From the NCBI RefSeq assembly GCF_003018115.1, contig NZ_CP027457.1: 64,000 nucleotides of DNA; one strand, given 5' to 3'. The stretch's first letter is position 1; every line of letters starts with the position of its first letter. Below, piece after piece: positions 1 through 3,000 of the stretch. The stretch is from Escherichia coli. Its GTDB lineage: Bacteria; Pseudomonadota; Gammaproteobacteria; Enterobacterales; Enterobacteriaceae. The position numbers were made by a program.

Positions 1-3000
1 CGCCGTTGATCCGGAGTCTCCTGAATCGTTCATGAGGCGGCCTAAACGTCGCCGTTGGGTTAATGAGAAATACACGCGCTGGGTAAAGACACAGCCGTGT
101 GCGTGTTGTGGTAAGCCAGCTGACGATCCACATCACCTGATTGGTCATGGTCAGGGGAGAGAGGGAACAAAGGCCCACGATATTTTCACGCTACCGTTGT
201 GCCGGGAGCACCACAACGAACTTCATGCAGACCCGCTGAAGTTTGAGAAAAAGTACGGCTCTCAGATTGAGTTAATTTTTCGTTTTCTTGATCACGCCTT
301 TGCGACTGGCGTGCTCGGGTAAAAGAGGTGACTGATGCTCATAGATTTGGTTTTACCTTACCCGCCGACGGTGAACACTTACTGGCGACGCCGTGGCAGC
401 ACATATTTTGTATCAAAAGCCGGGGAGCGTTATCGCCGGGCAGTGGCGCTTATTGTTCGCCAGCAGCGACTGAAATTAAGCCTGTCCGGACGGCTGGCAA
501 TAAAAATTATTGCAGAGCCACCGGATAAGCGCCGCCGTGACCTGGACAATATTCTGAAAGCACCGCTGGATGCGCTGACGCACGCGGGGTTGTTAATGGA
601 CGATGAGCAGTTTGATGAAATCAATATTGTACGTGGCAAGCCAGTATCTGGTGGACGGCTGGAGATAATAATTACAGAGGTGGGTGTGCATGAATAACCA
701 GTATTTACAGTTTGTTCGTGAGCAACTCATGATTGCCACTGCGGATCTTAGTGGGTCGACAAAAGGCCAGCTGGAAGTCTGGCAGGAAAATGCCCTGTTC
801 GATACAGGGCGTTACAGACGCAAAAAAATTCGTTACCGCGATGAGGTAACCGGAAAAATGATCACGCGGGATAATCCCCCGATCCCGGGTAAACAATCAC
901 TGGCGAAAGGCTCATCAATTGCCCTGGTCAGTCCGGTTGAGTTTTCGACATCATCATGGCGACGCGCCGTTCTGTCTCTTGAAGAACATCATAAAGCCTG
1001 GCTGCTGTGGTGTTACAGCGGTAGCATTTGCTGGGAGCATCAGATCGCGATAACGCAGTGGGCGTGGACTGAATTTAATGCTCAATCCGGTACCAGAAAA
1101 ATTGCAGGAAAAACTCTGGTGCGCCTGAAGACGTTGATCTGGTTGGCGGCGCAGGCGGTAAAAGCTGAGCTTTTTGGTGGGGAAGGTTACGAATACCAGG
1201 AACTGGCGTTACTGGTGGGAGTAACAACCAAAAACTGGTCCAAGACATTTACTGGTCACTGGGTTGCAATGAAACACATTTTTCATCGGCTGGATAGTGA
1301 AGCTTTATTGTTGGTGGAGGGAACACGTTCAAAACAAAAGGCGGCATTTTCATAGCAAAGTATTGCAAAAGTAGATAAAAAGGCATATATTTCGTGTAAA
1401 TCTGATATTTTGCCGTTATTATACGTGATGGCAAAGCCACTAAAACCCGTGACCGAGCGGGTTTTTTACCCCCCAAAAAATGGCATAGACATTAAACGTG
1501 ATGACGATTGTGCCAATACTTTCTCCATCAATGACGCCCCTTGACTGCATGGAATCCAATTTGTTATGTAATGTGTGTTGATATTTTTGAGTTGTTAATG
1601 GTGTTACTATGGATGACAGTGCTCTGCTCAGAAACTCTTCACTTTTTGTTGCTTATATGGGCTGTCTCGGATGGGGGAGCGCTTATTTCTATGGATGGGG
1701 TACTTCATTTTACTATGGCTTTCCATGGTGGGTTGTCGGGGCTGGTGTCGATGATGTAGCACGAAGTTTGTTTTATGCTGTGACAGTTATTGTTATATTC
1801 CTTATTGGATGGGGAGTTGGTATTGTTTTCTTTTTGGGCATAAAACAAAAGCGCAATATACAAAATTTGAGTTTTATCCGGCTTTTTCTCGCGATATTGC
1901 TGCTTTTTATTCCACCTGTTCTGGAGTTTTCTGTAATTCATCAGCATGTTGAGCCAGATGTACTGATTTTCTGCGTTCTTGCTGCCTTTGCAATCACGCT
2001 TTTTGTCAGGTCTGGAAGAAGACTTGTTTCAGTCAAATGTTTTTCGGAAATGTCTGTTATTCGCCATCACCGAATTGAGTTCATGATGGCTGGGTTTATG
2101 ATTTATTTCTGGGCATTCTCTCTTATTGCCGGTTGGTACAAACCACAGTTTAAGAGGGAATATCAGGCGGTCCACTATGAGAATGTATGGTATTACATTA
2201 TTGCGCGCTATGATGATCGTCTGGTGTTATCGAAATCATACAGGAGTGGGGGTAAGAAATTCGTTATATTTAATAGCGGAAATATTAATGATTTTGAAAT
2301 TAATACTGTCAGAGTACGTTAAAATTTCCTGAGTAATAAAGATTTTACTGCCCGGCATTGAGCGGTTTTTTTATGCCAGAAAAATGGTGCAGTACATAAA
2401 ATGTGCAGGTGGTTATTAATACCGGTCTTTCAGCTTGCTGGCTTTTTTGACAAGAGTTATTGGTGTGTCACGTTAACCGGAAAAGGGAAAAAGACATGCT
2501 GAAACAGCAGGATATGACAGAAACCGCCAGAGCAGTTTTTAATGAATTAAGTGCCACCGAACCGGCGACAGTCGGGGAGATTGCACAGAATACTTACCTT
2601 TCACGCGAACGCTGTCAGTTAATACTGACCCAGCTTGTTATGGCGGGTCTGGCAGACTATCAGTTCGGTTGTTACAGACGCCTTCAGTCCTGAAGGCTTT
2701 TTTATTTGTGGTAAATGGGCGGCTGGTGGGTGTTAGGGCACTCACCAGCCATCTGCTCATGCGTTGGGGTCACAAGCAAACCTCAGGCCCATCTGCTTTG
2801 CGCAAAAGCGGTATGAGCCTATCAGAGACAGGCTTAATGATCCACGTTTAATACTGTAAAAATATCCAGTTGTGAGTTAATCAACGCTGATTGCCTGGAA
2901 TTTATCCAGACCTTACCGGAAAACTCTGTCGATCTGATAGTCACAGACCCGCCGTACTTTAAAGTGAAGCCTGAGGGCTGGGATAACCAGTGGACGGGTG

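Follow-up and report, generated by a model that had tools for sequence, protein, structure and literature searches.

A probable phage 82-type late-gene control cassette downstream of a Q82-family antitermination gene in an Escherichia coli prophage

Does the segment that follows a Q-like gene in this 64 kb stretch of Escherichia coli DNA (64,000 nucleotides in full, referred to here as the window) form the start of a prophage late operon, and if so, which of the known antitermination systems describes it best? A preliminary description had read the segment as the lambda pR'/tR' arrangement, with a late promoter and a short terminated transcript downstream of a Q protein that might belong to a different antiterminator family. 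Our analysis indicates that the locus is very probably the late-gene regulatory cassette of a phage 82-type lambdoid prophage; what the sequence establishes directly in this reading is which elements are present, where they lie, how far they are conserved and to which family Q belongs.

The gene that precedes the cassette is the following:

690..1355, plus strand: gene of a Q82-family antitermination protein, 221 aa from the ATG at 690

The sole Pfam match of the encoded protein was PF06323 (E = 1.3e-90, residues 6-221), the lambda Q family PF03589 giving no match in the same search, and the protein is 77% identical to the phage 82 Q over 221 aa, which bears out the initial suspicion of a Q-like protein from a non-lambda family. 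RefSeq labels the gene 'bacteriophage antitermination protein Q', and the length of 223 aa given at first is most likely to be corrected to 221 aa, counted as in RefSeq from the ATG at 690 and not from a GTG at 684. A PDB sequence search with the protein retrieved no relative, and its top match (E = 0.15, a phage lysin) was taken as noise. The DNA of the Q 3' end could be aligned with the records of phages 82 and 434, the GenBank record of phage 82 (X92588) extending only to the Q stop codon. A premature TAG closes the frame 8 codons before the length of the phage 82 Q (229 aa) is reached. The Q stop lies 14 nt past the first T of the TTGCAA hexamer described below in 103 of 110 homologous loci, and the frame terminates inside the promoter spacer in most relatives, whereas here the stop lies 10 nt before that T; the frame no longer overlaps the promoter because the premature TAG makes Q 8 residues shorter. 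This short-Q allele is common: 35 of 78 IMG/VR relatives have it, and matches to at least 80% of the window segment 1300-1620, which runs from the Q 3' end to the start of the next gene, were found in 180 E. coli genomes.

Around and beyond the end of the Q gene, the elements of the promoter were placed as follows:

1363..1368, plus strand: -35 hexamer TTGCAA of the late promoter pR', read in the sequence
1369..1385, plus strand: 17-bp spacer, expected location of the Q-binding element (QBE), by position only
1386..1391, plus strand: -10 hexamer TATATT, read in the sequence
1398, plus strand: predicted transcription start (+1), the first A of AAA, 7 nt past the -10 hexamer

The letters of TTGCAA - 17 bp - TATATT were confirmed at 1363-1368 and 1386-1391, giving at the level of sequence a sigma-70 promoter with hexamers 17 bp apart at the Q 3' end. 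These hexamers agree with the consensus at 9 of 12 positions only, and pairs of comparable quality occur at 8 sites in 6 kb versus 9.3 expected, a frequency at which the hexamers alone are not significant. Relative to the Q 3' end, the position of the TTGCAA box is shared by phages 82 and 434 and by Klebsiella and Enterobacter phages found by similarity. In 82 pR', the QBE is located between the -35 and -10 elements (PMC4914094), and a QBE is expected here in 1369-1385 by its position alone; the spacer measures 17 bp in all homologous leaders and contains a semi-conserved core, (A/T)T(A/G)AA(A/T). Coding constraint could account for much of the conservation of the -35 hexamer and of the spacer's first half, since Q ends inside the spacer in most relatives. 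The wild-type 82 pR' transcript begins with AAA (PMC5001585), and the late promoter with a start near 1398 that had been put forward holds up in that, counted from this position, the landmarks published for the late promoter of phage 82 fall into place (PMC5001585).

The same TTGCAA box could alternatively be part of paQ, an antisense promoter activated by CII. On the minus strand, positions 1355-1368 read TTGCAATACTTTGC and fit TTGC-N6-TTGC, and the homologous box of phage 434 is annotated as a CII site and paQ -35. This attribution is barely credible at our locus: the second TTGC is kept in only 19 of 100 distinct homologous leaders, inspection revealed no acceptable -10 at the spacing of lambda CII-dependent promoters, and no cII is annotated in the immunity region of the identical prophage in RM10466, which holds an HTH repressor and one gene each of the Cro/CI and YdaT families. 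We rejected this CII/paQ interpretation here on the conservation count and on the RM10466 annotation; it is also compatible with pR' on the plus strand.

Downstream of the predicted start of pR', the initially transcribed region contains three elements resembling those mapped in phage 82:

1403..1411, plus strand: predicted sigma-70-dependent pause element (TG at +6/+7, TATTTT at +9 to +14)
1412..1414, plus strand: GCC, a discriminator-like G/C segment of an elemental pause (+15 to +17)
1422..1423, plus strand: predicted promoter-proximal pause site (U at +25, A at +26)

In the window, TG occupies 1403-1404 and TATTTT 1406-1411, and an AT-rich stretch spans +18 to +25 and closes with a U; the base at +26 is not a G. 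The pause element of phage 82 is -10-like with an extended -10 motif and lies between insertion points +9 and +15 (PMC5001585); the segment designated '82pR' (+15-17 GCC)' is required for the pause (PMC5001585), which occurs at +25/+26 with U at +25 (PMC5001585, PMC4914094). With +1 set at 1398, every published 82 landmark (AAA, TG, the -10-like sequence, GCC and U25) falls on a matching base, the extended -10-like sequence being found at +6 to +14, GCC at +15 to +17 and U at +25, in a comparison that follows the positional statements in the text of PMC5001585 and is not a base-by-base alignment. Relative to the phage 82 leader inferred from these statements, the window differs at +19, +21 and +24, the last being an A where PMC5001585 implies a G. 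The composite TTGCAA-N17-TATNNT-N6-AAA-NN-TG-N-TATNNT-GCC occurred once in the window versus none in 100 shuffles.

The leader then continues into two predicted hairpins:

1408..1436, plus strand: leader hairpin 1 (predicted fold, -12.0 kcal/mol)
1442..1467, plus strand: intrinsic terminator tR' (9-bp stem, 6-nt loop, six T's at 1462-1467)

The tR' stem pairs 1442-1450 with 1457-1465 through four G-C, four A-U and one G-U pairs, with a free energy of -11.9 kcal/mol, and is homologous to a terminator annotated in phage 434. A consensus terminator scanner failed to call it, probably because four of the T's pair with the upstream A-run and were counted as stem. The terminator begins 44 nt past the start and 51 nt past the -10 hexamer, roughly the 50 nt of the preliminary description, and lies about 90 nt (87-112 nt) past the Q stop codon. 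An RNA of about 70 nt starting at A1398 and ending at tR' is thus predicted, and for the leader as a whole (1398-1470) the predicted folding energy is -24.1 kcal/mol (z = -5.0 versus dinucleotide shuffles). The combination of a promoter-like site with a strict terminator 30-110 nt further on was found once in the 64 kb on either strand, against a shuffle mean of 0.1. A 44-aa frame at 1410-1544 runs through the terminator and was discarded as spurious; one phage record annotates its counterpart as a hypothetical protein.

More than 100 phage sequences of Escherichia, Klebsiella and Enterobacter show the same layout downstream of Q82-family genes. A set of 120 loci was retrieved by a pattern in which the -35 hexamer, the spacing and a portion of the pause element were prescribed; independent evidence from this set is therefore limited to the -10 hexamer, the terminator and the Q frame upstream. 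A Q82-family frame was present upstream in 105 of 110 pattern-retrieved loci, at 51-100% identity to the window protein. The -10 hexamer, which lay outside the pattern, read TATATT in 71 and TACATT in 22 of 100 distinct homologous leaders, with TAnnTT in 98. An intrinsic terminator was detected in 89 of 97 distinct homologous leaders, in 54 distinct sequences and with the stem ending at +46 to +99 (median +70), which, along with its presence here, sustains the short terminated transcript originally described. The variants from Escherichia, Klebsiella and Enterobacter maintain TGnTATnnT; since the retrieval pattern prescribed TG-n-TAT (+6 to +11), the T at +14, which proved invariant, is the only independent evidence within the pause element. 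Positions +15 to +17 were variable (GCC, CGC or GTA). The layout was likewise identical in all 78 usable loci retrieved with the Q protein alone, an unbiased set made up of close relatives only (87-100% identical).

The genes expected to depend on such a promoter were located well downstream:

10738..16615, plus strand: late genes for holin, lysozyme, Rz and the small and large terminase subunits (Pfam)

These matched PF04971, PF00959, PF03245, PF03592 and PF03354/PF20441, and the lysis and head (morphogenesis) genes lie 9.3 kb downstream of pR' on the same strand. The intervening accessory genes comprise a DNA methyltransferase, two tRNAs, a TolA-like protein, five copies of the STnc100 sRNA, an AraC-type regulator and a sialate esterase. 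Six more strict terminator-like sites were found on the plus strand between tR' and the holin gene, and processive Q antitermination would therefore be needed for expression of the late genes. In RM10466, which carries an identical prophage, the portal gene is annotated as frameshifted, and on this annotation the prophage may be defective.

These data also bear on whether there is a late promoter at all, for the hairpin and T-run might merely close the early-right operon after Q, the hexamers having arisen by chance. A distance of about 90 nt from the Q stop is plausible for an operon-end site, and hexamer pairs do occur at chance frequency in this region; nevertheless, we hold this explanation to be extremely improbable. 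The positions of the -35, the 17-bp spacer, the -10, AAA and TGnTATnnT are fixed across phages whose Q proteins are only 51-65% identical, and these fixed positions match the experimentally mapped landmarks of 82 pR'. The ending of the Q frame within the promoter spacer in most relatives points the same way, and an operon-end terminator leaves the late genes, beyond 9.3 kb and six terminators, with no other proposed promoter.

Among the known systems, the better model for the cassette is phage 82, lambda being less close. The phage 82 cassette shares with the window the Q family (77% identity), TTGCAA at the Q 3' end, a 17-bp spacer, the AAA start, the extended -10-like sequence at +6 to +14, GCC, an AT-rich stretch, U25 and a terminator close downstream; it differs in that the window Q is 8 residues shorter, its frame lacking the promoter overlap, and in that 9.3 kb of accessory genes precede the lysis genes in the window. 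[quoted passage not shown] Lambda, however, has its pause element at about +1 to +6, pauses at +16/+17 and terminates at about +193 (PMC5001585, PMC4914094), whereas the window has a -10-like element at +9 to +14, a predicted pause at +25 and a predicted transcript of about 70 nt in place of the 6S RNA that ends at about +193; the Q families (PF06323 here, PF03589 in lambda) are unrelated. Neither a PF03589 Q nor the lambda positions of pause and terminator were found in the window, and the lambda comparison of the preliminary description is refined in favour of phage 82. The pause element, and the extension of the Q frame into the promoter in most relatives, go beyond what that description had noted. 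Phage 434 (OL657226.1) provides a natural variant, with a Q82-like gene, the same -35, spacer length, AAAT start and TGnTATnnT, and the homologous terminator AAACCCGCTGCCGAGTGGGTTTTTTTT; it departs from the window in its -10 (TATACT, versus TATATT here), in GTA instead of GCC at +15 to +17, and in a leader about 17 nt shorter that is devoid of hairpin 1.

Hairpin 1 itself may be considered as a functional RNA element, which might stabilize the leader, insulate the U-rich RNA of the pause element from the terminator, or modulate pausing or Q loading. Its 5' arm takes in part of the pause element and GCC, its 3' arm, which holds GGCAAAG, is complementary to the pause element and GCC, and its predicted stability (-12 kcal/mol) is accompanied by the preservation of a 5-bp core, U14-A36 through G18-U32, in 20 related leaders. 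One pairing-preserving double change, C-G to U-A, was observed (leader L089), and the Klebsiella and Enterobacter leaders, of other sequence, usually still form a stem at +13 to +36. Such a function appears possible but unlikely to us, given that the covariation is at shuffle level (75% of cells paired versus 76.4%), that the GCC of the 5' arm is under constraint anyway as a pause signal in the DNA, and that phage 434 does without the hairpin. Moreover, 82 Q is active in vitro on templates containing only -90 to +30 of 82 pR' (PMC4914094), which argues that the hairpin is dispensable for Q loading and antitermination. We do not claim hairpin 1 as a proven RNA structure, because covariation adds nothing beyond column composition.

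The short transcript might, besides being a by-product of the switch, act as a constitutive trans-acting small RNA of the lysogen. A precedent exists in the sRNA StxS, which in Stx1/Stx2a phages is produced by processing of the pR'-tR' transcript (PMC7547250): this terminated pR' transcript serves as an Hfq-binding regulator, and its authors suggest generality (PMC7547250). Like StxS, the window RNA would be a short product of an antiterminated late promoter that closely follows Q in a lambdoid prophage of E. coli, made in the lysogenic state. The predicted RNA is also built like an sRNA: its first 10 nt are single-stranded, a stable hairpin, an A-rich linker and a terminator ending in a U-tail follow, and the leader fold is unusually stable (z = -5). 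On the other hand, StxS arises from a 258-nt transcript cut by RNase E to 74 nt and goes with the 144-aa Q type, not with Q82; it showed no sequence or Rfam similarity to the window RNA, and with the threshold relaxed to E <= 1, an Rfam scan of positions 1-8000 returned no family at 1363-1468. Relatives differ in a mosaic fashion in the stretch that separates the pause element from the terminator, and phage 434 lacks nearly all of it, so that no conserved seed can be made out. We consider a trans-acting role quite unlikely, and the further proposal that the RNA is a regulatory sRNA whose mosaic leader middle reflects diversified sRNA function very unlikely. If true, the sRNA reading would carry the StxS precedent to a second, unrelated Q family.

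Returning to the phage 82-type cassette, its operation can be outlined by analogy, with promoter activity, pausing, Q binding and read-through at this locus all projected from the phage 82 work. The sigma-70 RNA polymerase would initiate constitutively at A1398 from TTGCAA-17-TATATT, after which retained sigma-70 would re-bind the extended -10-like TGaTATTTT at +6 to +14, and the polymerase would scrunch and halt at about +25 (U1422), at a position set by the GCC at +15 to +17. Without Q, escape from the pause would lead to termination at the hairpin and U-run at 1442-1467 and to the release of a transcript about 70 nt long. Once the prophage is induced, the Q82-family protein (690-1355) would presumably bind its site in the -35/-10 spacer, engage the paused complex and ride with the polymerase, reading through tR' and the six further terminator-like sites; the polymerase could then cross the 9.3 kb of accessory genes to reach the holin, lysozyme, Rz, terminase and head genes.

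The arrangement is already well understood, the original observation being correct but ordinary, and our understanding of antitermination is unchanged by the result; the survey of more than 100 natural leaders could be of modest use to research on sigma-70-dependent pausing. For this prophage, the analysis puts the predicted late-operon start at A1398 and types Q as of the phage 82 kind. By analogy with phage 82, it would also place the six further terminators and the 9.3 kb of accessory cargo under Q control, and it can thereby serve annotation and the prediction of which accessory genes would be induced along with the phage.

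The gene upstream of the promoter had been assigned to Q by position in the preliminary description, with the suspicion that it might represent an antiterminator family other than that of lambda, and the protein comparisons identified this family as Q82. The frame ending at 1355 matched Pfam PF06323 (phage antitermination protein Q) over its whole length (E = 1.3e-90), and its product was 77% identical to phage 82 Q over 221 residues. With the RefSeq start, an ATG at 690, the gene encodes 221 aa and is preceded by a DUF968/NinG-like gene and rusA, in the order observed in the phage 82 record. 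A sequence search of the PDB (2026 copy) with this Q found no Q82-family relatives, the best match (E = 0.15) being unrelated; structures of Q21 and lambda Q have already been solved. Downstream of Q, the following elements were located:

1363-1368, + strand: -35 hexamer TTGCAA (sequence, consensus scan)
1386-1391, + strand: -10 hexamer TATATT, 17 bp after the -35 hexamer (sequence, consensus scan)
1398-1400, + strand: AAA at the predicted start, matching phage 82
1403-1404, + strand: extended -10 TG, matching phage 82
1406-1411, + strand: -10-like TATTTT, matching phage 82
1412-1414, + strand: GCC, matching phage 82 (+15 to +17)
1415-1421, + strand: GUUAUUA, an AT-rich stretch, followed by U 1422 (+25) and a non-G base, A 1423
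1442-1467, + strand: terminator tR', 1442-1450 paired with 1457-1465 around a 6-nt loop, T-run 1462-1467 (folding)

The hexamer pair was thus present as first described, and also picked up by the consensus scan, yet it is unremarkable taken alone, given eight promoter-like sites in 6 kb versus 9.3 expected from shuffles. The intrinsic terminator reported behind it was likewise recovered by folding, as a stem of four G-C, four A-U and one G-U pairs (-11.9 kcal/mol). Though clear on folding, tR' was absent from the output of the consensus scanner, likely because its stem was scored as including four of the six T's, which pair with an A-run upstream. Folding of the leader (1398-1470) gave two hairpins with a free energy of -24.1 kcal/mol (z = -5.0), and the combination of a promoter-like site with a strict terminator 30-110 nt downstream occurred only here in 64 kb on both strands, with a shuffle mean of 0.1.

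The phage 82 GenBank record stops at the Q stop codon; beyond it, the comparison relied on published positional landmarks of the wild-type 82 late promoter pR' from the Roberts and Hochschild laboratories (PMC5001585, PMC4914094). The 82 transcript starts with AAA, a pause-inducing -10-like element with an extended -10 motif lies between +9 and +15, GCC at +15 to +17 is required for the pause, and the segment from +18 to +25 is rich in A and T, with the RNA held at the pause ending in U at +25 before a base other than G (PMC5001585); the Q-binding element (QBE) is situated between the -35 and -10 hexamers (PMC4914094). With +1 set at A1398, the transcript landmarks were all matched by the window, a putative QBE being placed in the spacer by position only, and the composite motif occurred once in the window and in none of 100 shuffles. 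One difference was observed at +24, A in the window against an implied G in PMC5001585. That G occurs in a close E. coli relative of this leader (GCCGATTTTGTACG, e.g., L005), which probably represents the actual 82 sequence. In phage 434, whose record extends past a Q82-like gene, the -35 hexamer is as in the window with a 17-bp spacer, followed by TATACT, an AAAT start, TGGTATGTT and an annotated terminator homologous to that of the window. The original observation is confirmed and its late-promoter interpretation supported, with phage 82 instead of lambda as the model.

The phage 82 model is the best-supported account of this locus, its elements and their conservation being read from sequence and its activities by analogy with phage 82. 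Initiation at the late promoter would be constitutive, and sigma-70 would rebind the -10-like element and pause polymerase near +25; without Q, polymerase would stop at tR' and release an RNA of ~70 nt, while Q bound in the spacer would convert the paused complex into a terminator-resistant one. That RNA could itself function as an sRNA, like StxS, transcribed from the late promoter of Shiga-toxin phages (PMC7547250), but it has no match in Rfam, and relatives differ in a mosaic fashion in the central part of the leader.

Conservation was examined in IMG/VR with a pattern in which only TTGCAAAA and AAATYTGRTAT were fixed, at the observed spacing, yielding at least 120 stretches and at least 116 distinct leaders. 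Among the matches listed, 110 sites had sufficient sequence upstream, and 105 of these were preceded by a Q82-family frame (51-100% identical to the window protein); the -10 hexamer, itself outside the pattern, fitted TAnnTT in 98 of 100 distinct leaders. A terminator-like hairpin was found in 89 of 97 distinct leaders among those listed, with the stem ending between +46 and +99 (median +70); 54 different sequences were represented, indicating that terminator function was kept while the sequence was replaced. A search with the Q protein alone yielded 78 usable loci, all of them from close relatives; the layout was identical in 78/78, with only point changes (for instance, GAA in place of AAA where the transcript would begin). 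BLAST against sequenced phages extended this arrangement to phages of Klebsiella and Enterobacter. Just past the terminators, which are otherwise unrelated, a conserved stretch resembling AAAAATGGCATAGACATTAAACG(T/C)G is shared by 1468-1500 and several lineages (e.g., L024, L031, L192); it may mark where the next mosaic module joins, or else be a signal so far unrecognised.

On the minus strand, positions 1355-1368 (TTGCAATACTTTGC) conform to TTGC-N6-TTGC, the CII box of lambda, and share bases with the -35 hexamer of pR'; for its homologous box, the phage 434 record gives a CII site and the antisense promoter paQ. This reading was rejected for the window, as just 19 of 100 distinct leaders among the matches listed retain the box and no cII is annotated in the immunity region (HTH/Cro/YdaT) of the identical prophage of strain RM10466, which adjoins ompW.

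TTGCAA lies within the last codons of Q82, and in 103 of 110 homologous loci among the matches listed the Q frame terminates within the pR' spacer, its stop codon 14 nt beyond the first T of TTGCAA; the last codons of Q thereby also supply the -35 hexamer and a portion of the presumed Q-binding site. In the window, a CAG/AAG-to-TAG change at 1353-1355 shortens Q by eight residues and uncouples the frame from the promoter, and AAA stands in place of the usual TAA/TGA stop. This shortened form of Q is frequent: 35 of 78 IMG/VR relatives carry it, and 180 E. coli genomes matched 1300-1620 over at least 80%, which argues against a dead gene.

The predicted hairpin 1 (1408-1436, -12 kcal/mol) pairs the RNA of the pause element and GCC with GGCAAAG. 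A 5-bp core was kept in 20 related leaders, in which covariation was no better than in shuffles, and the phage 434 leader lacks it. Since 82 Q is active in vitro on templates with only -90 to +30 (PMC4914094), hairpin 1 is not needed for Q loading.

Beyond tR' we found:

1609-2322, + strand: multi-pass membrane protein, 237 aa, directly 3' of tR', no Pfam match
2964-3902, + strand: DNA methyltransferase gene
3942-4103, + strand: tRNA(CAU) and tRNA-Arg (anticodon TCG), between Q and the lysis genes
4917-5129, 6889-7084, 7148-7357, 7419-7617 and 7679-7868, + strand: STnc100 sRNA (RF02076), five full-length matches
downstream of tR', + strand: small winged-helix protein, TolA-like protein, AraC-type regulator and SASA esterase
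from 10738, + strand: lysis and packaging genes (holin, lysozyme, Rz, terminase)

Six more strict terminator-like sites lie on the + strand between tR' and the holin gene, so late expression from 1398 would need processive antitermination. Q proteins provide this activity. The membrane protein, with a homologue at the same place in phage 434 and a weak promoter-like TTGACT-17-TTATGT at 1541-1569 upstream, may be a moron whose expression does not depend on Q. The anticodon-CAT tRNA was called Met by ARAGORN and Ile by RefSeq, and from these conflicting calls is probably of the lysidine Ile2 type; the pair is placed similarly to the ileZ-argN-argO cluster in Stx phages, and no stx genes were found in the 64-kb window. 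The stretch 5282-5450, a pseudogene in RefSeq, repeats the C-terminal end of the methyltransferase gene (3700-3902) 1.4 kb downstream. Between the two lie both tRNA genes, the TolA-like gene and the first of the STnc100 copies, and the repeat has the look of a scar left by recombination when this block was inserted. Bit scores for STnc100, a prophage sRNA family, were 119-172, the gathering score being 47, and four of the five are head to tail within 1 kb, each with its own terminator at the end. According to a 2026 preprint, STnc100 is related to PasD and copies of Pas are dispersed, not tandem, in light of which this four-copy tandem array may merit attention. The late-promoter locus itself is a further, little surprising case of an already well-characterised arrangement, and the result is of use for annotation.
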